IMG/VR virus record: IMGVR_UViG_2541047679_000003
Origin: a virus
Taxonomy: Duplodnaviria; Heunggongvirae; Uroviricota; Caudoviricetes
DNA length: 35,960 nucleotides
Direction: 5' to 3' (one strand)
The notes beneath the pieces were generated by a model. It was not told the DNA's origin and did no database searches. It saw nothing but the letters and a program-made list of their open reading frames with translations. Of this stretch, positions 9,219 to 34,128 are shown piece after piece; within the stretch, counting starts at the first letter, position 1; each line of letters starts with the position of its first letter. Position numbers and translations under genes: made by a program.

Positions 9219-9228
9219 GATATTAAAG
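9219..9228 (-). promoter_or_regulatory. candidate late promoter motif upstream of the tail chaperone gene
   Basis: Minus-strand CTTTAATATC about 55 nt upstream of the chaperone ATG; a GC-rich inverted repeat (9243-9256) lies just upstream. Confidence 0.35.
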
Positions 9229-9263
9229 GAGATTAAGAAGAAGGGGCCGGAGCCCCTGTGATG

Positions 9264-22201: not shown

Positions 22202-22552
22202 TTAAAGCCCCATCGCAACAGCCAGGCAGACCGCTGCAACAATCAGTGCACGGCGGATTAACGCAGCAGAAAACACCAGGTGAAGGCCGGTCTGTACCGG
22301 GAAACGCCCTTCAGCCATCAGCCTGTCGTCATGTTTCAGGTACTGACCGGGACGGGCTTTGGGGAAGAGCGAACGGTCAAGCCAGTAACCCAGCACTGCT
22401 GCCAGCGTGATGAGTGCCAGCTTGTAGATCACAACAGGCAGCTGCTGTGGTGAGACCAGAGCGATGGTGCCCAGCAACAGCACTGAGGTCAGCAGCCAGC
22501 CGCTGAGGCGAGGTTTTTTAACAGGGGGAATGAATTTTTTCAGGTTTTTCAT
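22202..22552 (-). CDS. membrane protein (holin/antiholin-like) opening the lysis operon
   Basis: ATG at 22552 preceded by AAGGAG; 116-aa product with 2-3 predicted TM segments. Confidence 0.5.
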   Translation of the reverse strand: MKNLKKFIPPVKKPRLSGWLLTSVLLLGTIALVSPQQLPVVIYKLALITLAAVLGYWLDRSLFPKARPGQYLKHDDRLMAEGRFPVQTGLHLVFSAALIRRALIVAAVCLAVAMGL

Positions 22553-22612
22553 GTGTGTCTCCTTATCTGGTGGAGACAGCATCACAAATACAGGGCGCGA
22601 AGGATTTTAAAG

Positions 22613-22622
22613 CGCGTTAAGA
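22613..22622 (-). promoter_or_regulatory. candidate late promoter motif upstream of the lysis operon
   Basis: Minus-strand CTTTAAAATC about 50 nt upstream of the first lysis gene; shared with three other late-region gaps. Confidence 0.35.
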
Positions 22623-22682: not shown

Positions 22683-23411
22683 ATGACGCAGACACTGAAT
22701 CCGGTCATCACTGTCACCGTGTCCGGTCCTGTGGGCAGCGGTAAAAGTTACGTACTGGCGCGAATAGAGGAAGTGGTGAAACAGGAATTCGGAAACAGCG
22801 TCATTGTCGACGCCGCAGACGTGGACGGTGAGCGCCGTATGAGTGGGGATGATCTGAGCACATGGCAGAAACCACGGGCTGGCACAGTGATCAGGCTGGA
22901 GGAATACACGGGACAGGGCCTGTTGTCATACGGCGAGGAGCGTATCTGTCGGACGAATGAGCTGCTGGATGTTATATGCCCCACGGGCCGGCAACCCTGG
23001 ATACTGCCCGATGCACTGCATGCCACCATTGCGGCACTGATGACAGTTTACGATCAGGAGCTGCTCATGAAGGAGTTACGTAAACTCACTGGTCAGTCAA
23101 CAGAATGTTGTTCGTCCCCGAAGTACGGCAAACAGGAACACATCCCGATTAACCAGCCTCCCCGGTTCTTCGACGAATACCTTCTGACACCGGAAAATAA
23201 AGCTGAGCATGAAGAGATCAAAGCGGCGTTGTTCCGGGAAATCAGGAAGATTGCTGAAATGCAACTGGAGGGCGGGCTGGACAGAGTGATGGCGAGAGGA
23301 GAATGGGCATCGCTGTTTGAAAGAGTTTCCCCGGAATTACTTCCCCTCGCACTGGCTATCGGGATTATGCAGACAGCGGATAAACCTCACTTACGTTCAT
23401 TAAACACGTAA
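22683..23411 (+). CDS. P-loop NTPase of unknown function
   Basis: Walker A GPVGSGKS at residues 15-22, candidate Walker B VIVDAAD; GAGGAG SD 9 nt upstream. Confidence 0.6.
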   Translation: MTQTLNPVITVTVSGPVGSGKSYVLARIEEVVKQEFGNSVIVDAADVDGERRMSGDDLSTWQKPRAGTVIRLEEYTGQGLLSYGEERICRTNELLDVICPTGRQPWILPDALHATIAALMTVYDQELLMKELRKLTGQSTECCSSPKYGKQEHIPINQPPRFFDEYLLTPENKAEHEEIKAALFREIRKIAEMQLEGGLDRVMARGEWASLFERVSPELLPLALAIGIMQTADKPHLRSLNT

Positions 23412-23791
23412 CGCATAATCCGGGATACGCATTCAGCGATGACTGCATTTTCACCGGTTTTTACTGCATCCAGAAGTGACTCTTTAAATGGTACGGGCCG
23501 GGGCTGCAGAAAGGTCGGCATGGCATTGAGCAGACAGAGCGTTTTTTCCGTGAGGACGACATCAGCCGCTCCCACAGCCAGCAACTGAGAGTAACGAATA
23601 TAGCTGTTATCCCGAAGCCATATCAGCGTATCAATAAAACACCGGCACTTTTTCTGGTCGTGATCAACCTGGTCCGGGATATCGAAAAAACCAGAATAAA
23701 TCAAAACCTGAGGTGCCGGATGCGTGTTCAGTAATCGGCAGAATATTTTGCCGGTGAGTACATAAAAATCATCATTTAAGGAGTGCATCAT
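23387..23791 (-). CDS. hypothetical protein
   Basis: 134-aa ORF filling an otherwise 378-bp non-coding gap; overlaps the 3' end of the P-loop gene and the start of the next ORF. Confidence 0.35.
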   Translation of the reverse strand: MMHSLNDDFYVLTGKIFCRLLNTHPAPQVLIYSGFFDIPDQVDHDQKKCRCFIDTLIWLRDNSYIRYSQLLAVGAADVVLTEKTLCLLNAMPTFLQPRPVPFKESLLDAVKTGENAVIAECVSRIMRYVFNERK

Positions 23792-24005
23792 GAATCCCCG
23801 ATTAACGTTAACAGAACATCAGCGCCGTGCTGAAGCAGTGAACAATGTTCTGGAAGATATTATCCGGTTATACCGCGGAGAACTGAGTGTCTGTCGTGCC
23901 GCTTTTCATTTTCAGGGAATACAAAAGCAGTTTGATACTTCTGTTTTTGCAGAAGGTATTACTTATGCCCTGGACCGGATAAGGTCAGAAAATCGCCCCG
24001 GATAA
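23790..24005 (+). CDS. hypothetical small protein
   Basis: 71-aa ORF with AAGGAG SD 7 nt upstream of the ATG. Confidence 0.35.
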   Translation: MNPRLTLTEHQRRAEAVNNVLEDIIRLYRGELSVCRAAFHFQGIQKQFDTSVFAEGITYALDRIRSENRPG

Positions 24006-24059
24006 TCCCTAAACCACATTAACAGAAATCCCGCCATCCCTGCCGCATCATGAAAGAAC

Positions 24060-24091
24060 GACCAGCCCGGCACCCGAAAGCCGGGCTGGTC
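24060..24091. promoter_or_regulatory. GC-rich stem-loop (12-bp stem)
   Basis: gaccagcccggc / gccgggctggtc inverted repeat with an 8-nt loop. Confidence 0.4.
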
Positions 24092-24148
24092 ATCGCCCCA
24101 CAGGAATGCGCTGTGAGCCGACCAAGGTTCAGTCAGTCTCGCGAGACC

Positions 24149-24176
24149 TGACCAGACTGCCATATTTTTTAATAAT
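24149..24176 (+). promoter_or_regulatory. candidate sigma70 promoter for dam
   Basis: TGACCA, 16-bp spacer, AATAAT about 20 nt upstream of the dam ATG. Confidence 0.3.
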
Positions 24177-24195
24177 TGTAAAAGGCTTGCAGATT

Positions 24196-24960
24196 ATGAA
24201 AATGCAGACATTACCCATCGTGCCGTGGATTGGTGGCAAACGCCGCCTTGCAAAACACATTCTGCCGCTGTTTCCGGCGCATGAATGTTATGTGGAGCCG
24301 TTTTGTGGGGCAGCAGCGCTCTATTTTCTTAAGACACCCGGCAAGATCGAAGTCATCAATGATATCAACGGTGAACTGGTGAATCTGTACCGGGTGGTAA
24401 AGCATCACCTGGAAGAATTTGTCCGCCAGTTCAAATGGGCGCTGGTCAGCCGTCAGATCTACAAATGGCTGCAGATCACCCCGGAAGAAACACTGACGGA
24501 TATCCAGCGTGCGGCACGGTTCTACTACCTTCAGAAGCAGGCGTTTGGCGGCAAGGTGGCAGAGCACAGCTTCGGTACCTCCACCACATCCCCGCCACGC
24601 TTCAACCTGCTACGTATTGAAGAAGAACTGTCAGCGGCACACCTGCGGCTTTCCAGAACAGTCATAGAACACATGGACTGGCAACAGTGCATTGAGCGTT
24701 ATGATCGTCCGCACACGCTGTTCTACTGCGACCCACCGTACCTGGGTACGGAAGGCTATGGTGTGGATTTTCCTGAAGGGAACTACTCGCGGCTGGCAGA
24801 GCTGGCCCGGTGCATCAGAGGAAAAATGATAATTTCGGTGAACGACATCCCGCAGATGCGCGAGGTGTTCACTGGACTGAACATACAGACAGTGAATATC
24901 AACTACAGTCTGGCGGGTAAACCCACGCCGCGCCGTGAACTGCTAATCTGCAACTTCTGA
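24196..24960 (+). CDS. dam: DNA adenine methyltransferase (Dam family)
   Basis: N-terminal ...PWIGGKRRL... AdoMet-binding region and catalytic DPPY motif (FYCDPPYLGTEGYG); ATG at 24196. Confidence 0.85.
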   Translation: MKMQTLPIVPWIGGKRRLAKHILPLFPAHECYVEPFCGAAALYFLKTPGKIEVINDINGELVNLYRVVKHHLEEFVRQFKWALVSRQIYKWLQITPEETLTDIQRAARFYYLQKQAFGGKVAEHSFGTSTTSPPRFNLLRIEEELSAAHLRLSRTVIEHMDWQQCIERYDRPHTLFYCDPPYLGTEGYGVDFPEGNYSRLAELARCIRGKMIISVNDIPQMREVFTGLNIQTVNINYSLAGKPTPRRELLICNF

Positions 24961-24966
24961 AACAAA

Positions 24967-24991
24967 ACCGGAAAGCACAATGCTTTCCGGT
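24967..24991 (-). terminator. rho-independent terminator downstream of the repressor gene
   Basis: accggaaagca / tgctttccggt stem followed on the minus strand by TTTTGTTTC; lies between the convergent dam and repressor genes. Confidence 0.5.
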
Positions 24992-25076: not shown

Positions 25077-25433
25077 TCAGCCTGCGATTTTTCCTGGTTT
25101 TGGCTGAGTATAGAATCGCCCAATCTCAAGAAATGAGCGTTGTTGGTCTGGTGTCATGTCGTCAAAAGTATCTATTAGTTTTTGTTTTTCTGGGGAAATT
25201 TGATTCTGGTTTCTAGTCATACCATCTGTGCTCATTCCAGTGAGCAACCAATTTACATCAACATTAAACTCTTGATGCATCTTTAACAGAAACTCCCCTC
25301 CAGGCATCGCCTTTCCATTTTCAATCTGACTGATACCACCATTAGAAATACCTAAACGAGCTGCAAATTCTCTCTGGTTCAACCCTGCTTTCTTCCTCAC
25401 AGAAATAACGCGCTCTCCTATATCTTTGCTCAT
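25077..25433 (-). CDS. prophage repressor, HTH XRE family
   Basis: N-terminal helix-turn-helix (...LNQREFAARLGISNGGISQIENGK...), divergent from the early operon. Confidence 0.8.
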   Translation of the reverse strand: MSKDIGERVISVRKKAGLNQREFAARLGISNGGISQIENGKAMPGGEFLLKMHQEFNVDVNWLLTGMSTDGMTRNQNQISPEKQKLIDTFDDMTPDQQRSFLEIGRFYTQPKPGKIAG

Positions 25434-26086: not shown

Positions 26087-27007
26087 ATGGGACGTACCAA
26101 ATCACCGATTAACACTGAACTGAACGCCGATGTACCGCTGTCGGATGATCTCAACGTCAGCCTGAATGCCATGACACAGCATCGCATGGAGATCATGCAG
26201 CAGTTTGGTGATGGACTGCCTTATGAACGTGAACGCATCGTTCACGAAGCACGTTTTTATATGGCGCAGAGTGCTGAATCTATGTTGGAAGCGGGTAAGC
26301 GGCTGATCATCTTAAAAGAAAATGAACCGCATGGTGATTTCACAAATATTCTGGAAAACGACCTCGGATTAGCACCACAGGTAGCTCGTCGCATGATGCA
26401 GGCCAGCGTGAAATTTCTCGGCAATGGAGATGAACAGCCAAAACGCTCAGCGCTGAGCGTTTTGGGAAAAACCAAGTTATATGAACTGATGGTTCTGGAT
26501 GACGAAGAACTCGACGCATTAGCTGATGGTGGAACCGTCGCCGGTGCAACGCTTGATGATATTGATCGCATGACCAGCCGCGAACTGAAGGCCGCCCTGC
26601 GTGAAGCGCGCGAAACCAACGCAGCTCAGCAACAGGTGCTTGCCGGAAAGGACGAAAAAATCAACGAACTGGCCACAAAACTGGAGAAGAAATCGCGCCT
26701 GCAACCTCCGCCGCCAGACGAAGAACTGAAAAAATTGCGGGCGGAAGTGACGGCATTAGCGGTTGAGGCCGAATCGGCTATCGCCGTCCGGCTGTCCAGT
26801 GTTTTTGAGACCCTGTGTGAATACTGCACCAAAAACATGATCGATACCCCCAGAGATTTCATGGCCGGTCTGGTCTGCCAGATTGAACGCAGTGTTCATG
26901 CATTACGTGAGACGTTTGACCTTGAGGCCGCTCCATCGGGTAACGATGCCCCCGCCTGGCTGACCGAACCGGAACCTGAAATCAACCGACCGGAGGATAT
27001 GCAGTAA
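26087..27007 (+). CDS. hypothetical early protein (possibly DUF3102-like)
   Basis: 306-aa ORF with AGGAG SD, acidic coiled-coil middle region; family assignment from memory only. Confidence 0.55.
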   Translation: MGRTKSPINTELNADVPLSDDLNVSLNAMTQHRMEIMQQFGDGLPYERERIVHEARFYMAQSAESMLEAGKRLIILKENEPHGDFTNILENDLGLAPQVARRMMQASVKFLGNGDEQPKRSALSVLGKTKLYELMVLDDEELDALADGGTVAGATLDDIDRMTSRELKAALREARETNAAQQQVLAGKDEKINELATKLEKKSRLQPPPPDEELKKLRAEVTALAVEAESAIAVRLSSVFETLCEYCTKNMIDTPRDFMAGLVCQIERSVHALRETFDLEAAPSGNDAPAWLTEPEPEINRPEDMQ

Positions 27008-27324
27008 TGAATACGAATAACACACAAAATACCCTGATGGACAGCCCGGAGGCACTGGGGCACGCACTGTGTAATCTGCTGCCGGAGATGGTGCAGGGTT
27101 TCCGCGTGGTGACCCCTTCCGGTGAAATCTGCGTACCCGCACAGGAGACGCACCCGTTTGTACTGACGATGGAGGTGATGCTGATGCAGCAGATAAGACG
27201 TCTGCAGAATCAGTCAGCATTACGCCCGGTAGTTGCACCGCAACCGGTAAATACCGTGGTGAAAACCTGCGATGGCGAAACACTGTGCGACCTCGCCAGA
27301 AAAATTGCCGCCAGAATCGGATAA
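27007..27324 (+). CDS. hypothetical protein
   Basis: 105-aa ORF, start overlaps the previous stop (TAATG), GGAGGA SD. Confidence 0.45.
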   Translation: MNTNNTQNTLMDSPEALGHALCNLLPEMVQGFRVVTPSGEICVPAQETHPFVLTMEVMLMQQIRRLQNQSALRPVVAPQPVNTVVKTCDGETLCDLARKIAARIG

Positions 27325-27339
27325 CAGGGAAGACAAGCT

Positions 27340-29109
27340 ATGACCCCGGCACTGACTGAAAAACTGGTTGAAACAGCCCGCGCGGCACGTGACGCGGGGC
27401 ATGGTAAACGCGGTGCAATATACGACGCTGCCTGTGCTGAACTTGGCATGTCCCGCGCCACTCTGCTGCGCAGGCTGAAGGAGGTATCTGTGACTGATAA
27501 ACGCAAAAAACGCGCCGATGCCGGGCGCAGCGCCCTGACCCGCGACGAAGCCGCGCTGATATCTGCCACACTGCGTGAGGCCACCCGCAAGAACGGTAAG
27601 CGTCTCTATTCCATCGCAGATGCAGTGGAAACCCTGCGGGCTAACGGCTTTATCACCGCAGGCAGAACAGATGAAACCACCAGTGAGTTTTTCCCGTTGT
27701 CTGAAGATGCCATCAGCCGTGCTCTGCGTAACTATGGCCTGCACCCGGAACAACTGGATGCCCCTGCACCACATACCGAAGTGGCCAGTCTGCATCCCAA
27801 TCATGTCTGGCAGATTGACGCCTCACTCTGCACGCTTTACTACCTGAGCAATGGACATAAAGGGCTGCAGGTGATGGACAGCGCGAAGTTCTACAAGAAC
27901 AAGCCCGCTAACCTTGCCCGTATCGCCAGTGACCGCGTGTGGAGTTACGAGATTACCGACCATGCCAGCGGCTGGATTTACGTTGAGTATGTGACGGGCG
28001 CGGAATCAGGTGAGAACCTGTGTTCTGTGCTTATCAACGCCATGCAGGAGCGTGGCGGCGCAGACGTGCTGCACGGCGTGCCGAAAATACTCTATCTCGA
28101 CCCCGGCTCGGCAAACACCGCGGGTATGACGAAAAACATGTGCCGCTCACTGGGCATCGACCTGATAGCGCACAAGCCGCATAACGCCCGCGCCACCGGA
28201 CAGGTGGAAAAGGCGCGTGACATTATCGAACGCAAGCTGGAGCCGGGTCTGAAGTTCCGGCCGGTTCACAGTCTGGAAGAACTCAACGCGCTGGCCGCGA
28301 AATGGCGCAGCCACTTTAACGCCACGGCTGTTCACAGCCGCCACGGTAAAACCCGCACGGATATCTGGCTGAAGATTACTGCTGAGCAGCTGAAAAAAGC
28401 GCCTTCCGTTGAGGTATGTCGTGAACTGGCTGTGGCGGCACCAGAACTCCGCAAAGTCACGCCAAAACTTCGTGTCTCGTTCCGGGGCACTGAATTTGAC
28501 GTATCAACGGTACCGGGCGTACTGGTTGGTGAAAAACTGATGATTACCCGTAACCCATGGCGCAGCGATGTGGCACAGGTGGTTCTGACCGGTGAGGACG
28601 GCCACGAGACGTTCTTCCTGGTCGAAGAGGTCAGAAAGAACGAGTTTGGCTTTGCTGAAGGCGCGGCGGTATTTGGCGAAAGTTACAAAGCCCTGCCGGA
28701 AACCCCGGCACAGATGGCGGCAAAAGAAACCGAAGCGCTGGTTACCGGTACAGACAACGCCGCAGATGCAGCCGCCGCACGCAAGGCGAAGGCGCTGCCG
28801 TTCGGCGGGCGGCTTGACCCGTATAAACATATCGACGACACCACACTTCCGGCCTATATGCCGAAGCGTGGTCAGGCCTCTGACGTACGCGGGCCGCGCA
28901 CTGAACAACGTCCCATGACTCATGTGGAGGCCGCGAAAGCCCTGCGCGATAAGTTCAGCGCCGACGGCCTTACCTGGACGCCGGAACATTACCGCCAGTT
29001 AACGGCACAGTACCCGGACGGCGTACCGGAAGCCGCACTGGATGAAGTCATGGCCACGCTGACCACACCGGCCCGCAGCAGTGTTATCAGCATTGTTAAC
29101 GGCAACTGA
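27340..29109 (+). CDS. DDE transposase (Mu A-type / rve-like core)
   Basis: N-terminal HTH, then candidate DDE residues in ...VWQIDAS..., ...YLDPGSANTAG... and ...GQVEKARD... Confidence 0.85.
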   Translation: MTPALTEKLVETARAARDAGHGKRGAIYDAACAELGMSRATLLRRLKEVSVTDKRKKRADAGRSALTRDEAALISATLREATRKNGKRLYSIADAVETLRANGFITAGRTDETTSEFFPLSEDAISRALRNYGLHPEQLDAPAPHTEVASLHPNHVWQIDASLCTLYYLSNGHKGLQVMDSAKFYKNKPANLARIASDRVWSYEITDHASGWIYVEYVTGAESGENLCSVLINAMQERGGADVLHGVPKILYLDPGSANTAGMTKNMCRSLGIDLIAHKPHNARATGQVEKARDIIERKLEPGLKFRPVHSLEELNALAAKWRSHFNATAVHSRHGKTRTDIWLKITAEQLKKAPSVEVCRELAVAAPELRKVTPKLRVSFRGTEFDVSTVPGVLVGEKLMITRNPWRSDVAQVVLTGEDGHETFFLVEEVRKNEFGFAEGAAVFGESYKALPETPAQMAAKETEALVTGTDNAADAAAARKAKALPFGGRLDPYKHIDDTTLPAYMPKRGQASDVRGPRTEQRPMTHVEAAKALRDKFSADGLTWTPEHYRQLTAQYPDGVPEAALDEVMATLTTPARSSVISIVNGN

Positions 29110-29119
29110 GGAGGGAAAC

Positions 29120-30286
29120 ATGCTGGTACTGAAGCAGCAACTGAAAGAGGCCCGTATTCCACAGGCGGTGGTGGCGAGAGCTGTCGATGTTTCTGAGGCC
29201 ACGCTGGCCCAGATTGTGAATCATAACGCGTGGCCCCGCACCAGCCCCGGAGAAGTGCGCCGGCGTCTTGCGTCCTGGCTGGAAAGTCAGGGGATTGATA
29301 CAACGAAGAGTTTTGATGCTGTACAGGGCGCGGCCACGCCCCGTACAGCGGGTACCACAGATAAAACGAGCCTCAGTGAGGAAGAGAATATGTTACTCAA
29401 AAAACAGGTGTTATTTCCAGCAACCAAAAAAGCGTTTGGTCTTTTCCGTGACCCGTTCGCCGACGAAGCCATGCAGGGTTCTGATGATGTGTTCACCACC
29501 CCGGACATTCGCTACGTGCGTGAGGCGCTGTACCAGACAGCCCGTCATGGTGGGTTTATGGCCGTCATCGGTGAGTCCGGTGCGGGTAAATCCACGCTGC
29601 GCCGCGACCTGACTGAACGTATCAACCGCGAGAATGCGCCGGTAATTGTTATCGAGCCATACATCATCGCTATGGAAGACAACGATGTGAAAGGGAAAAC
29701 CCTGAAGGCAGCAGCTATTGCCGAAGCCATTATCAGTACCATCGCACCACTGGAAAGCATCAGACGCAGTCAGGACGCCCGTTTTCGCCAGTTGCATCGC
29801 GTCCTGAAAGACAGCAGCCAGGCGGGGTTCAGCCACGTTCTGGTGATTGAGGAGGCCCACAGTCTGCCCATTCCGACACTGAAACACCTCAAACGCTTTT
29901 TTGAGCTGGAGTCCGGTTTCAAAAAACTGCTGTCCATCGTGCTGATTGGCCAGCCGGAACTGGCGACAAAACTGTCTGAACGCAATATGGAAGTCCGTGA
30001 AGTCGTTCAGCGCTGTGAGGTGGTCGAACTTCTGCCTCTGGACAATAACCTTGAAGAATTTCTGACGTTCAAACTGCAACGGGCCGGTAAACAGCTGACG
30101 GACATTATGGACGCCGGTGCAGTGGATGCCATACGTGCCCGCCTGAGCAATCCGGGAAGTCACCGTAAAAATATGGTCAGCCTGCTGTATCCGCTGGCCG
30201 TCAGTAACCTGGTAATAGCCGCCATGAATCTGGCCGCTGAAATCGGGGTTCCACAGGTCAACGCTGACGTTGTCAAAGGGGTTTAA
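29120..30286 (+). CDS. transposition ATPase (AAA+, Mu B-like role)
   Basis: Walker A GESGAGKST, Walker B-like VLVIEEAH; immediately after the transposase; GAGGAGGG SD. Confidence 0.75.
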   Translation: MLVLKQQLKEARIPQAVVARAVDVSEATLAQIVNHNAWPRTSPGEVRRRLASWLESQGIDTTKSFDAVQGAATPRTAGTTDKTSLSEEENMLLKKQVLFPATKKAFGLFRDPFADEAMQGSDDVFTTPDIRYVREALYQTARHGGFMAVIGESGAGKSTLRRDLTERINRENAPVIVIEPYIIAMEDNDVKGKTLKAAAIAEAIISTIAPLESIRRSQDARFRQLHRVLKDSSQAGFSHVLVIEEAHSLPIPTLKHLKRFFELESGFKKLLSIVLIGQPELATKLSERNMEVREVVQRCEVVELLPLDNNLEEFLTFKLQRAGKQLTDIMDAGAVDAIRARLSNPGSHRKNMVSLLYPLAVSNLVIAAMNLAAEIGVPQVNADVVKGV

Positions 30287-30288
30287 TA

Positions 30289-30558
30289 ATGAAATCCACC
30301 ACAGGTATCAACCAGCAAATCAGCAAAGTGCAGTCAGCCATTATGGCGCTTAAGGCGACGAACACGGATGTACAAAGCATCACCATCAGGGGTAACAAAC
30401 CTGTCATCCGCGTTTCCCGGAGTGCGCATTGCATGCGCATGCTTGAGCAGGGAAAGGCCTGTTATCTGTATACCGGACATGACCACAGGGGATATTTCCG
30501 TCAGGGCGTTTTCGAACTGCACGGCTGTCGCGTCGTGTGGCCGGAATCTTTGTGGTAA
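30289..30558 (+). CDS. hypothetical protein
   Basis: 89-aa ORF with SD, between the ATPase and gam. Confidence 0.45.
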   Translation: MKSTTGINQQISKVQSAIMALKATNTDVQSITIRGNKPVIRVSRSAHCMRMLEQGKACYLYTGHDHRGYFRQGVFELHGCRVVWPESLW

Positions 30559-30585
30559 TCAGCACAACTGGAGAAATCATAAAAA

Positions 30586-31116
30586 ATGGCAAAAAGTACA
30601 AAAGGTGCAAAACGTATCAAGGCCGCAGCAGCACTCTGGGTGCCGGGGACACGTGAAGAGGTCATTGAGGGAATCAGACTACTCGGTGACGCACAACGTG
30701 AACTGGTCAGGGCTGAAACAGAAATGAATGACGCCATTGGCGATATCACCGCACGTTATGCCCCGCTCACCGAGAGCCTGAAAAAACGCATGGCCGAACT
30801 GCAGTCCGGTATTCAGACATGGTGTGAGGCACACCGTGATGAACTGACCGGCAACGGGAAGGTGAAGTTCGCTAACCTCACCACCGGCGAGGTGCAGTGG
30901 CGAAACCGTCCGCCATCAGTCAGTATCCGTGGGGCGGATAATGTTATTGAATTACTGAGACGTCTGGGGCTTGAGCGCTTTATTCGTGTAAAAGAGGAAA
31001 TAAATAAAGACGCTATCCTGAATGAAAAAGAGGCCGTGAAAAATATTCCCGGTATTTCCATTAAAAGCGACATTGAGGATTTTTCAATAATTCCTTTTGA
31101 GCAGGATGTGCAGTAA
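30586..31116 (+). CDS. gam: host-nuclease inhibitor Gam (Mu Gam family)
   Basis: 176-aa ORF recognisably similar along its length to Mu Gam (MAK..KRIK.AAA..VP..R..V...I...GD.QRE..R.ETEMNDAI..IT...A.....L.....W... Confidence 0.85.
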   Translation: MAKSTKGAKRIKAAAALWVPGTREEVIEGIRLLGDAQRELVRAETEMNDAIGDITARYAPLTESLKKRMAELQSGIQTWCEAHRDELTGNGKVKFANLTTGEVQWRNRPPSVSIRGADNVIELLRRLGLERFIRVKEEINKDAILNEKEAVKNIPGISIKSDIEDFSIIPFEQDVQ

Positions 31117-31213
31117 ACACACCACGTTAATTATTTAATAAAAACATTTTCTTTTTTATTCCGACGTCAGCGCCGCGGGCTTCTGCACGCCGGAAACAGA
31201 GGAGAATTAAATC

Positions 31214-31408
31214 ATGATATTTAAATGTATTCAGTGCGAGAGGGATATAACAGCCCTGCGTTTTCACAGCGCCATCGCCGTGATGTCCGGTAAATACCAC
31301 ATCCCTGCGGTACGCGTCACCCTGGTCTGCCCGTACTGCAGCCAGCATTTTTCGGCAGACGTGCCCGTCATGGAATTCTCCCGCCCTGACAGGGAGGACT
31401 CGCAATGA
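31214..31408 (+). CDS. small zinc-ribbon protein
   Basis: 64-aa ORF with CxxC ... CxxC (CIQC and CPYC); GAGGAG SD. Confidence 0.5.
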   Translation: MIFKCIQCERDITALRFHSAIAVMSGKYHIPAVRVTLVCPYCSQHFSADVPVMEFSRPDREDSQ

Positions 31409-31677
31409 TTACCCCACAGGAAGCACGACAGCGCACCCGAACCCTTGTTGAACACTATGTCAACGAGTGTGAATGCCGCGACCTCACCGATGTGAAGCAC
31501 GTCCTGACGGCGCTAATCAGCATGGCCACACAGGCCATTGTGGCGACCAACGGAAAGGAGGCTGCCCTGCAGGTACTGATGAACACACTCACCCACACGG
31601 CAGAGCATGAGGTGCCGTACCGGATGGAAACCACTGCAGAAGGCGGCCTGCACATCACCGTCAGCCGGAAGCACTGA
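31405..31677 (+). CDS. hypothetical protein
   Basis: 90-aa ORF, ATGA overlap with the previous stop, AGGGAGG SD. Confidence 0.45.
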   Translation: MITPQEARQRTRTLVEHYVNECECRDLTDVKHVLTALISMATQAIVATNGKEAALQVLMNTLTHTAEHEVPYRMETTAEGGLHITVSRKH

Positions 31678-31686
31678 GGGCGCGGC

Positions 31687-31983
31687 ATGACACGAAACAC
31701 CGAACTCACCCGCACCGCCCTCTACCGTCTGGCCCTGCAGCGTTTCGGGCCGGACGCACAGGCCCTGAAACTGGCAGAAGAGGCCGCTGAACTGGCGGCC
31801 AGTGCCGCCCGCAACCTGAACGGACAGGGCAGCGAAAGTGACCTCGCGGCAGAGCTGGCAGACGTGGAAATCATGACAGAGCAACTGCGCCTTCAGGGGA
31901 TGGACCGGCTGATTGACTTCCACAAACAGAAAAAACTGGAACGTCTGGCTGCACGACTGGGCGTGATTTACACGAACGAGTAA
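31687..31983 (+). CDS. MazG-like nucleotide pyrophosphohydrolase domain protein
   Basis: 98-aa ORF with ...LAEEAAELAASA... and ...AAELADVEIMTEQL... resembling the EExxE...ExxD motifs of small MazG proteins. Confidence 0.55.
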   Translation: MTRNTELTRTALYRLALQRFGPDAQALKLAEEAAELAASAARNLNGQGSESDLAAELADVEIMTEQLRLQGMDRLIDFHKQKKLERLAARLGVIYTNE

Positions 31984-31997
31984 CCGGGAGGCATTCA

Positions 31998-32213
31998 ATG
32001 GCTGACATACTCAGGGAAATCACCGCATGGACACTGATTCTTACTGGCCTGGCGACATGCCTCAGTGCGGGGGCAGCCCTGGCTGCCCTGCTGATGCACA
32101 TAACAACACAGTGGTTATGGGAAAAGCTTAAAGCAGCATACAGCCTGAAAGAGCTGTCCGACGCTGTCCGGGCATGGAAACGGCAGAAAAATACCGGAGA
32201 TACAGAACAATGA
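31998..32213 (+). CDS. small membrane protein
   Basis: 71-aa ORF with one hydrophobic TM-like segment (WTLILTGLATCLSAGAALAALLM). Confidence 0.4.
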   Translation: MADILREITAWTLILTGLATCLSAGAALAALLMHITTQWLWEKLKAAYSLKELSDAVRAWKRQKNTGDTEQ

Positions 32214-32893
32214 CAGACCAGAATAAACACATTGAGAAACTGAAAAAGTTGCTGGCGCTGGCCGCATCCGGCAACCCGCACGAGGCCGCTCTGGCACTGC
32301 GCCGAGCCCGTAAACTGATGGATGTTCACGGCATCACACATTCCGACATTGCTATGAGTGATATTGATGAAACCATCAGTCACTACTGGCCGACAGGCAG
32401 TCTCCGTCCACCGCGCTACATGCTGGGCCTGATGAACATCATCCGCGAGGTATTTGGTGTTAACTCCATCATTCACCCCGGCACGCATCCGTCTGTGGGG
32501 TTCTACGGCAACCGGGAACGTGCGGCACTGGCTGCATACACCTGGGAAGTGCTGGCCCGTCAGCTGAAAAAGGCGCGTCAGCAGTATATCAGTGCACAGA
32601 ACAAAAGAATAAAAACCGCCACCCGCACCAGCCGTGGAGACCAGTTTGCCGAAGGCTGGGTGCTGGCCGTTATCAGTGAAATACAGTCCTTTGCCCTGAC
32701 CGATGATGAGCGTGAACTGATGCAGCAGTGGCTGGAACATAAATACCCGCAGACGCAAACCACCAGGGCGCGTAAACCGGGAAGAAGCCGCAATGGCGAC
32801 GCCTCGCGCTATGCGGGGTTTCGTGAAGGGCAGAACGTCAGACTGCACCGCCCGGTCAGTGGGCAGGAACAACAGAAACTGGAGGCCAGATGA
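32210..32893 (+). CDS. hypothetical protein (possibly DUF2786-like N-terminus)
   Basis: ATG at 32210 overlaps the previous stop; N-terminus ...KLKKLLALAASGNPHEAALALRRARKLMDVHGI...; family assignment from memory only. Confidence 0.5.
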   Translation: MTDQNKHIEKLKKLLALAASGNPHEAALALRRARKLMDVHGITHSDIAMSDIDETISHYWPTGSLRPPRYMLGLMNIIREVFGVNSIIHPGTHPSVGFYGNRERAALAAYTWEVLARQLKKARQQYISAQNKRIKTATRTSRGDQFAEGWVLAVISEIQSFALTDDERELMQQWLEHKYPQTQTTRARKPGRSRNGDASRYAGFREGQNVRLHRPVSGQEQQKLEAR

Positions 32894-33120
32894 TTACGCT
32901 ATCAGGTAAAAGCCGGAAATTAAAAGCCTGCCGAATATCTGCCAGATACCTTTTTGCCCGCGCCTTTTTTAAGAACGTCAGGCCGGGGATCACAATTGGT
33001 GTTATTGCCGGACGCGAACAGGTTGAAAAATACATGTCAGGTGCATGGTGGAATAACGACCCTGTCATTGCTGCCCGTAATATTCATATCGAATGGGGAG
33101 GTATTCAGAATGACTACTGA
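32890..33120 (+). CDS. hypothetical protein
   Basis: 76-aa ORF, ATGA overlap with the upstream gene. Confidence 0.35.
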   Translation: MITLSGKSRKLKACRISARYLFARAFFKNVRPGITIGVIAGREQVEKYMSGAWWNNDPVIAARNIHIEWGGIQNDY

Positions 33121-33317: not shown

Positions 33318-33767
33318 ATGCAGAAAAAACGCCTGATACAGCTTATCCATATTGCCCGTAATGAACTGGGTATGGATGAAGACACCTACCGCCAGATGTT
33401 ACAGGGGCTGACCGGTAAAGCCTCAACCAAAGGAATGGATACCACACAACTAAACTGCGTGCTGGAATCCATGAAAAAGAAAGGCTTTCGCGTTAAACCA
33501 GCCAGAAAAGCCAGCTCCGGTTTACCGCTTGATAACCATCCGCAGTCCAGGAAAATTCGTGCGCTATGGCTTGAAATGGCTGCTGCCGGCATTGTTCGTG
33601 ACCGTTCAGAAAATGCATTAGCGAGGTGGATCAAGCGGGAAACGGGCATCAGCGCCCTGCGCTGGCTCAGTACTGAACAGGCAAGCAGTGTTATTGAGAA
33701 ACTGAAGAAGTGGCAGCGCAGAGCTGCGGGAGTCAAACATGAGCGACCTGAATCAGTTTCGAAGTAA
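33318..33767 (+). CDS. GemA-like protein (Mu gp16 family)
   Basis: 149-aa ORF with N-terminus ...LIQLIHIARNELGMDEDTYRQML..., immediately upstream of mor; AAGGAG SD. Confidence 0.6.
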   Translation: MQKKRLIQLIHIARNELGMDEDTYRQMLQGLTGKASTKGMDTTQLNCVLESMKKKGFRVKPARKASSGLPLDNHPQSRKIRALWLEMAAAGIVRDRSENALARWIKRETGISALRWLSTEQASSVIEKLKKWQRRAAGVKHERPESVSK

Positions 33768-34128
33768 GGGGCCGGAACTCCTGGTGGAACTGGCACAGCA
33801 TACCTCTGAGACCGTTCGCGAGATTATTGATATTGAGCCCGAAGTTGCCGACCAGATTGGTCAGGCCGTCGCGAACCGAATGATGCAGGTCTGGGGCGGG
33901 CAAAACGTTTATTTCCCGATGGGCATGGTATGGAAGGTCAGTCAGCGCGACCGGGAAATCTTCAGGGAGTTTAACGGACGCAACCACCACGAACTGGCCC
34001 GCAAATTTGGTGTTTCGCTTCAGTGGGTCTACAGCGTGGTTAAGCGGGTAAGAAAAGAAGAACTGGATCGGATGCAGGGCAAGCTATTTGCTGATGAACC
34101 CGATGCAGATACGGAGAAAAAAGAGTAA
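33739..34128 (+). CDS. mor: Mor/C-family transcription activator
   Basis: 129-aa ORF, the same length as Mu Mor, with a C-terminal HTH-like ...HHELARKFGVSLQWVYSVVKRVRK...; last gene before the prophage end. Confidence 0.75.
   Translation: MSDLNQFRSKGPELLVELAQHTSETVREIIDIEPEVADQIGQAVANRMMQVWGGQNVYFPMGMVWKVSQRDREIFREFNGRNHHELARKFGVSLQWVYSVVKRVRKEELDRMQGKLFADEPDADTEKKE

Follow-up and report, generated by a model that had tools for sequence, protein, structure and literature searches.

The window analysed here, the whole 35,960-nucleotide stretch of DNA, is the BcepMu-like transposable prophage Phi2 of Escherichia coli ST131, and the present analysis concerns its adenine DNA methyltransferase (MTase) gene together with the leader of about 150 nt that precedes the start codon. 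The 1.8 kb around the MTase gene are 100% identical to Escherichia phage PhiKM (PQ738613, genus Bcepmuvirus), and this region was matched in 546 of 5426 complete E. coli genomes, in 388 of them at an identity of at least 99%. In strain EC958 the prophage sits between aroA and ycaL. The coordinates of the invertible tail-fibre segment agree with those published for Phi2 (PMC4134206), and within ST131 the MTase is distributed as Phi2 is (PMC5654935). The module comprises the following features:

24049-24195, plus strand: conserved structured leader
24196-24960, plus strand: orphan D12-class N6-adenine DNA MTase of 254 amino acids (M.EcoMIV / EC958_1101 / WP_000783854.1)
24295-24318, plus strand: motif I, for binding of S-adenosylmethionine (AdoMet), EPFCGAAA, residues 34-41, aligning with EPFVGAGS of EcoDam and EPFVGGGA of DpnM
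24730-24741, plus strand: catalytic motif IV, DPPY, residues 179-182, read from the sequence and invariant in the family

The maximal open reading frame (ORF) begins at 24106 (284 amino acids) and ends at 24960. The real start of the gene is the ATG at 24196, which yields 254 amino acids in agreement with RefSeq and is supported by a block of Shine-Dalgarno (SD) sequence, spacer and ATG, AAAAGGCTTnCnGATnATG, that is kept in all relatives. The longer version, called from the upstream ATG in the PhiKM GenBank record (L001, PQ738613; 29908-30762, 284 amino acids), was considered and rejected: the frame of the N-terminal extension from ATG 24106 is broken in KP12, meets a stop after 6 codons in Photorhabdus and is interrupted by an indel or stop codons in relatives, and its substitutions are mainly non-synonymous.

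A preliminary description of the locus had proposed a complete Dam-family N6-adenine MTase with a DPPY motif and no restriction partner, placed between a small accessory cluster and the repressor, and these proposals were borne out. The protein matched PF02086 (D12 class; 6e-29, 102 bits against a cut-off of 22 in Pfam) and TIGR00571 (116.6 bits against a cut-off of 114.85), and its motifs follow the order of the D12 class, with motif I N-terminal of DPPY and the recognition region between them. Its relatives in the PDB are DpnM (6.5e-17), EcoDam (5.5e-14), 7m6b (5.9e-12) and T4 Dam (0.004); the solved structures matched at sequence level were 2dpm, 2g1p, 7m6b and 1q0s, and an AlphaFold model from a shallow alignment of 19 close homologues reached a pLDDT of only 54.9 and was discarded as poor. 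In motif I, within the AdoMet-binding region, the second Gly of FxGxG is replaced by Ala. Since F36, G38, A40 and A41 are invariant over 20 diverse family members, this replacement is a family trait and not a mark of decay. Compared with eight relatives, the non-synonymous divergence (dN) was 0.08-0.14, while the synonymous divergence (dS) exceeded 1 in the six comparisons where it could be estimated, and dN/dS was 0.05-0.11. The gene is thus intact and under strong purifying selection.

As for a restriction partner, the flanking ORFs of 242, 134 and 71 amino acids showed no similarity to nucleases or defence families; their only matches were to PHROGs without assigned function, and PADLOC returned nothing. 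Moreover, the neighbouring genes vary among about 20 syntenic loci while the MTase stays. The enzyme is an orphan with no adjacent cognate restriction endonuclease. It has already been catalogued as M.EcoMIV (EC958_1101), and the enzyme itself adds nothing new: Forde et al. (2015; PMC4659465) described it on Phi2 of EC958 and classed it with the orphan type II enzymes of the D12 class; they found the identical protein in over 80 E. coli genomes, and among homologues of more than 65% identity none with a known site.

The family to which the MTase belongs is large. A tblastn search of phage records gave 581 with homologues, including B3 ORF48, the Burkholderia phages phiE125, phi1026b and KS9, Vibrio phage VP882 and Halomonas phage phiHAP-1, and a genome scan added 80 further MTase loci. 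The identity to ORF48 of Pseudomonas phage B3, annotated as 'Dam', is 63.8% at the amino acid level over residues 3-254, i.e. the full length. In about 20 species of Enterobacterales (including Klebsiella, Trabulsiella, Buttiauxella, Pantoea, Brenneria, Erwinia, Photorhabdus, Xenorhabdus, Citrobacter, Serratia and Symbiopectobacterium) an 80-87% identical gene occupies the same place in the same orientation, within a conserved order of SLT and holin genes on the minus strand, zero to three variable genes, the MTase on the plus strand, variable genes with the repressor on the minus strand, and then ner, IclR, DUF3102 and transposase genes on the plus strand. This conservation of place and orientation shows the MTase to be stable in the phage lineage and not a recent moron. 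A Com-like ORF of the CxxC...CxxC type overlaps the MTase start in 18 of 86 loci, all of them outside the enterobacterial BcepMu-like lineage; the window and all enterobacterial BcepMu-like loci lack both a Com homologue and a CxxC...CxxC ORF. The MTase belongs to a large family of B3 ORF48-type phage enzymes, which would fill the functional role that Mom has in Mu. The parallel with B3 drawn earlier holds for homology but fails for location, the B3 gene lying inside the tail cluster behind Com and not beside the repressor.

Conservation and structure of the leader

When 17 enterobacterial loci were aligned, a conserved block of approximately 150 nt, containing several inverted repeats, was seen just ahead of the ATG. 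In the window, the covariance model built for this leader gave a single match (24039-24205, 139 bits), and nhmmer delimited it to 24049-24203. Searches with a hidden Markov model and the covariance model placed the leader, at full length and on the coding strand, directly upstream of either the MTase gene or com; this held for 54 of 72 sources, among them B3 (L007 3698-3855; 22.9 bits and E 0.0011 with the covariance model). It spans phages of beta- and gamma-proteobacteria, and in Com-bearing loci it is com that it precedes.

An exact-pattern scan of IMG/VR with the leader core CACAG-N7-CTGTGAGYCRACC returned 87 contigs, in 83 of which a homologous MTase starts 52-86 nt downstream of the core (median 72, the same as in the window). 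The other four consist of two rearranged modules and two chance matches in coding sequence. In one contig (L170) the core, at approximately 4848, is followed by only the first MTase codons, with a complete 254-amino-acid copy about 707 nt past the end of the motif; this is a rearranged or partly duplicated module. In another (L106) the leader is followed by an 18-codon remnant. No family in Rfam 15 reached its gathering score, the best matches for the window being CRISPR-DR44 and CC0196 (E>2). The leader RNA is thus conserved and, apparently, previously undescribed. Its helices, of which RNAalifold predicted P1, P3, P4 and the long-range helix on the coding strand, are:

24060-24091, plus strand: helix P1, a 12-bp GC stem-loop forming a perfect inverted repeat
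24099-24115, plus strand: helix P2 of the 'open' state, CACAG (24099-24103) with CUGUG (24111-24115)
24111-24192, plus strand: long-range helix of the 'closed' state, CUGUGAGCC (24111-24119) with GGCUUGCAG (24184-24192), from RNAalifold
24125-24158, plus strand: helix P3, with compensatory changes, containing the palindrome GTCTCGCGAGAC (24136-24147)
24166-24185, plus strand: helix P4, a U-run (24166-71) with an A-run (24177-83), then the SD sequence AAGG (24182-85)

The stem-loop at 24060-24091 had been noted before, together with a promoter, in front of the MTase gene, and it is exactly as claimed; it represents the basal helix P1 of the conserved leader and is no promoter landmark. Its perfect 12-bp stem and 8-nt loop fold with -28.9 kcal/mol (z = -6.3; none of 200 shuffles folded as well), and compensatory changes were observed in eight of the nine modelled pairs across 56 sequences. 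A role for P1 as a Rho-independent terminator on the plus strand was rejected, as it lacks a U-tract (tail AUCGCCCC / AUCAAC) and was not called by the terminator scan. The palindrome within P3 is unique in the window, and as shared late-operator sites both GTCTCGCGAGAC and CACAG-N7-CTGTG were discarded, being either unique in the window or at chance level.

The remaining pairings compete with one another. The 9-bp long-range helix covers two G of the SD sequence and stops 3 nt before the AUG, and it shows changes on both sides in seven of its nine pairs (for instance UA 24/CG 16/UG 6 and GU 28/AU 16/GC 7). P2 lies outside the alignment model yet covaries as well (AU 36/GC 15, AU 38/UA 11, CG 36/UA 11). 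Both helices use CUGUG at 24111-24115 and are mutually exclusive, and a column that covaries with two partners is the signature of alternative pairing. Over the whole structure, 94% of cells were paired in the 17-sequence MAFFT alignment, compared to 31-50% in slid controls, and in the 56-sequence model-fitted alignment 89% were paired, compared to 35-54%, with both-side changes in 32 of 38 pairs and a covariation of 0.428 against at most 0.068 in slid controls. The ratio of G.U to A.C appositions, moreover, points to the coding strand in the case of the long-range helix (70:25) and of P4 (14:3). When each state was forced on the window sequence, the closed fold had -56.5 and the open fold -56.3 kcal/mol; the median difference between closed and open was +1.8 kcal/mol, and of 54 sequences folded without constraint, 16 had the closed helix in their optimum and 24 had P2. 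The leader is therefore predicted to adopt two nearly iso-energetic folds, one of which would bury the ribosome-binding site.

The surrounding prophage

The module is embedded in a prophage with the following further features:

22202-22585, minus strand: holin, one of the tail, head and lysis genes, which lie on this strand
24008-24021, no strand: degenerate TTAA-N6-TTAA copy CTAAACCACATTAA, candidate late-activator site upstream of the leader
24967-24991, minus strand only: intrinsic terminator of the leftward repressor gene, an 11-bp stem followed by UUUUGUUU
25077-25433, minus strand: HTH_3 (XRE-type) prophage repressor (Pfam HTH_3 4.5e-15, Phage_CI_repr 1.8e-5)
plus strand: ner-like, IclR-like, DUF3102, DDE transposase, ExeA-like, Gam, GemA and Mor genes
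from 34272: host ycaL

The annotation of PhiKM and RefSeq provided the hallmarks of Bcepmuvirus, namely a DDE transposase, an ExeA-like B protein, Gam, GemA and Mor, with the early genes divergent from the lysis-head-tail genes and the immunity region at the interface. In BcepMu the immunity region is likewise found where two divergent gene blocks meet (PMC2771037), and the window is arranged in the same manner. The repressor gene is divergent from the ner-like early operon and convergent with the MTase gene, and its terminator follows directly after the MTase stop codon. On the plus strand the hairpin at 24967-24991 has no U-tract, and MTase transcripts could run antisense into the repressor gene. 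In the PhiKM GenBank record (L001) the repressor (29435-29788) is left without a coding sequence. At the boundaries, the prophage end falls between Mor (34128) and host ycaL (34272), and window position 1 corresponds to EC958 coordinate ~1007592 when calculated from the offset of the MTase gene, which is within the published crossover site of the Phi2 tail-fibre inversion (1007582-1007607; PMC4134206).

Upstream of the leader, 22683-24005 contains three genes that are missing from most related prophages and whose ends overlap, encoding proteins of 242 amino acids (with a Walker A motif, GSGKS), 134 amino acids (on the opposite strand) and 71 amino acids. This block is inserted between a holin-proximal TTAA dyad and the degenerate dyad copy. 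The exact dyad, TTAA-N6-TTAA (TTAAAG-N4-TTAA), occurs three times in the window against 0.25 expected (2872-2885, 9223-9236 and 22607-22620), each time between genes and ahead of late genes on the minus strand (baseplate, tail and holin), and a related motif, TAAA-N3-C-N-TTAA-N-AG, is found about 190 nt upstream of the MTase ATG in most enterobacterial relatives. The TTAA dyad is a candidate binding site for the Mor-family late activator (33739-34128).

Proposed role of the module and competing explanations

The reading that we favour, with moderate confidence, is that the MTase acts as a Mom-like DNA-protection enzyme of the lytic phase, placed behind a conserved two-state leader that gates its translation. 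By analogy with Mu, the enzyme would be kept off in the lysogen and produced in lytic growth, as a functional counterpart of Mom. Transcription would take place during lytic growth from an activator-dependent late promoter, which fits the lack of a conserved sigma70 promoter: none was found on either strand between -260 and +330 of the ATG, the only recurrent call being a GATAAT that overlaps the ATG. The modelled leader would then gate MTase synthesis at translation initiation, and the enzyme would methylate progeny DNA before packaging, possibly shielding it from restriction in the next host. In EC958 grown to mid-log phase in LB, reverse transcription quantitative PCR (RT-qPCR) showed the M.EcoMIV transcript to be significantly below that of dam, and the single-molecule real-time (SMRT) methylome of this strain contained no motif assignable to M.EcoMIV, though GATC activity would be hidden by the host Dam (PMC4659465).

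Several points weigh against this reading. The Mom-like role is an analogy, and the phage encodes no Com that could act as trigger. Should transcription start within the leader, formation of the closed state would be impossible. The pairing counts of the 56-sequence alignment, except those for P2, are inflated, as this alignment was fitted to the modelled structure. For the Enterobacterales sequences RNAalifold prefers the minus strand (-34.2 vs -25.6 kcal/mol, with 14 vs 11 compensatory pairs), and the ratio of G.U to A.C is neutral for P1 (36:34) and leans towards the minus strand for P2 (1:14). Finally, the observed/expected ratio of GATC in the prophage is 0.53, which makes it less likely that the enzyme protects the phage DNA at GATC and is silent on other targets.

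A more far-reaching version, which we put forward only tentatively, is that the element of about 150 nt represents an undescribed and widespread bistable leader that switches translation of B3-type MTases or Com in response to a specific trigger, and, linked to this, that the specificity of the family is relaxed or non-GATC, like that of the prophage MTase Hia5. The trigger might be a late phage factor, the kinetics of co-transcriptional folding or a small ligand. A relaxed or non-GATC specificity is conceivable because both residues with which EcoDam reads G:C pairs are lost, as detailed below, and, if true, relaxed specificity would explain why synthesis is so tightly gated.

The preference for the minus strand could have a different origin, at least in the enterobacterial BcepMu-like lineage, where P1 (with P2) may be mainly a leftward intrinsic terminator on that strand, keeping transcripts that come from the repressor side from running on into the late lysis promoter and holin. 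Besides the lower energy of the minus-strand consensus fold (-34.2 vs -25.6 kcal/mol), the minus-strand hairpin is the more stable one in 12 of 17 Enterobacterales sequences and has tails of the CUCUUUUCC type behind it (4-6 U within 9 nt), compared to AUCAAC on the plus strand, and the repressor and lysis genes are co-directional. We nevertheless find this doubtful as the principal function, given that the repressor has a good terminator of its own at 24967-24991 and that covariation of the helix burying the SD sequence is left unexplained. Outside the Enterobacterales, furthermore, the genomic contexts are unrelated, the leader often standing just after a gene on the same strand, and the 5' flank is rich in purines but poor in A (GAAGACAGCG), giving a poor minus-strand U-tract. 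Leftward termination could also be an additional rather than an alternative role in this lineage.

A further explanation accepts the enzyme but not its purpose: it could be an ordinary Dam of GATC specificity whose task lies in the DNA transactions of the phage itself, by full methylation against MutH cutting or in the timing of expression, and not anti-restriction. Horton et al. (2006) are reported to have found that K9 and R124 of EcoDam read the two G:C pairs of GATC. These residues align with Pro10 and Ala122, respectively, the latter at a position variable in the family, which, given these reported roles, speaks against a GATC Dam; the stacking aromatic Y119 of EcoDam is retained as the invariant F117. 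Nor was the cut-off of the Dam equivalog NF008152 reached (67 bits vs 441). DpnM and EcoDam, its closest relatives of solved structure, both act on GATC, which favours this explanation, but another D12 structure, 7m6b, which we take to be a non-GATC enzyme, is nearly as close: the family profile places all three at about the same distance (DpnM 1.6e-20, EcoDam 6.9e-20 and 7m6b 2.3e-17). It is also true that T4, P1 and Stx phages encode their own Dam in dam+ hosts, as is well established (PMC5005818).

The prophage, in turn, still avoids GATC, which counts against an ordinary Dam. In the prophage (1-34300) it is the second most depleted 4-bp palindrome after CTAG, with 88 sites observed against 166 expected from a Markov model and 131 from base composition, and a stretch of 6.1 kb that covers the transposase and early genes (26839-32988) is free of GATC. 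As a proxy for specificity these statistics are suggestive only, and methylome papers on Xenorhabdus and Chania assign no specificity to this MTase family. Overall, the chances that GATC is the target are roughly even, and the complete explanation, a Dam for the phage's own purposes, appears unlikely to us.

A cis-antisense countertranscript from the minus strand, which would pair with the MTase leader and hold it closed during lysogeny, would also account for a minus-strand signal. This strand forms two hairpins followed by a U-tail and gave, over P1-P2, Rfam matches to ctRNA_pGA1 (30.7 bits, E 0.031) and SymR (28.4 bits), which were located in relatives (L029 3845-3923 and L071 3702-3765, both on the minus strand). 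Both matches are below the gathering scores, the G.U asymmetry points to the plus strand for P4 as well as for the helix burying the SD sequence, and since there is no conserved minus-strand sigma70 promoter within -260 to +330 of the ATG, we regard an antisense RNA as quite improbable.

The promoter suggested in the preliminary description consists of TGACCA (24149-54) and AATAAT (24171-76), 16 nt apart, and these hexamers are indeed present. The promoter scan, however, scored CTGACC-17-AATAAT at 9/12 and the TGACCA-16-AATAAT register at 8/12, which is at chance level, five such sites being found in 3.5 kb compared to 3.8 expected from shuffles; a position-by-position scan of the 17 loci found the site in the window alone and in none of the 16 relatives. 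The proposed '-35' belongs to the 3' arm of P3, and the '-10' falls within P4. That the MTase is expressed from its own sigma70 promoter in the lysogen, independently of the phage programme and with an altered host methylome and regulation, is therefore very improbable, even though orphan prophage MTases are known to act so in other systems, since the hexamers are unconserved parts of conserved helices, a transcript beginning at about 24183 would have hardly any leader ahead of the SD sequence, and EC958 showed neither a transcript level matching dam nor an extra SMRT motif (PMC4659465); expression outside the phage cascade is accordingly not supported.

With the leader and the Mom-like reading taken together, what is new is that the B3 ORF48-type family carries its own conserved RNA leader, predicted to have two states, across beta- and gamma-proteobacteria, and this adds a candidate cis-regulatory RNA motif with about 140 examples. 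The two-state leader would offer a testable reason why prophage 'Dam homologues' have repeatedly been reported silent in SMRT methylomes of lysogens. The region of the MTase gene is present in about 10% of complete E. coli genomes, and the family occurs in many other pathogens. If the specificity is truly relaxed, these enzymes might be useful as footprinting reagents.

Comparison with known systems

The closest described system is M.EcoMIV of EC958, an identical protein on the same prophage between aroA and ycaL; the leader, the link to the B3 family and the conserved position are absent from that publication (PMC4659465). DpnM, EcoDam and T4 Dam share with the window MTase the order of motifs (GGK loop, motif I, target-recognition region and DPPY) and, judging by the matches at sequence level, probably the fold class. 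They differ in that the HMMER matches are only moderate (E 1e-14 to 1e-17; T4 Dam 0.004) and the equivalents of K9 and R124 are not conserved. With regard to the leader, a similar principle operates in the fold-back inhibition of IS10 transposase mRNA and the refolding of hok mRNA, where an upstream segment pairs with the initiation region and only one conformer or transcript form is translated. The sequences and genes of IS10 and hok are unrelated to the window leader, and the likeness is by analogy.

Hia5, Hin1523 and Nma1821 are MTases of Mu-like prophages that replace Mom, stand behind a Com gene and are silent in the lysogen (PMC3299994). They constitute a separate and very distant subfamily, B3 ORF48 being outside the 1000 nearest relatives of Hia5, and relaxed specificity, which is proven for these three enzymes (PMC3299994), is for the window family a possibility by analogy. 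Phage B3 is much closer, as the same leader is found upstream of its module and both are transposable phages with an MTase in place of Mom. The B3 module is situated between tail genes, with the Com zinc-finger ORF47 overlapping the MTase start, whereas the window MTase lies between the lysis cassette and the repressor and has no Com. The ORF47/ORF48 pair of B3 (Braid et al. 2004) is treated as a replacement of Mu com-mom, and the activity of ORF48 had not been demonstrated as of 2011 (PMC3299994).

Mu com-mom itself (PMC3299994; PMC6483171) resembles the window module in serving DNA modification in a transposable phage, in being silent until late and in having an occluded ribosome-binding site, the latter being predicted by modelling in the window. 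The Mom enzyme is unrelated to the window MTase and produces acetamido-adenine; its gene lies at the right end of Mu, and relief of the occlusion requires Com binding between com and mom. The window leader, unlike that of Mu, precedes the first ORF and is predicted to be bistable by itself, in a phage that has no Com.

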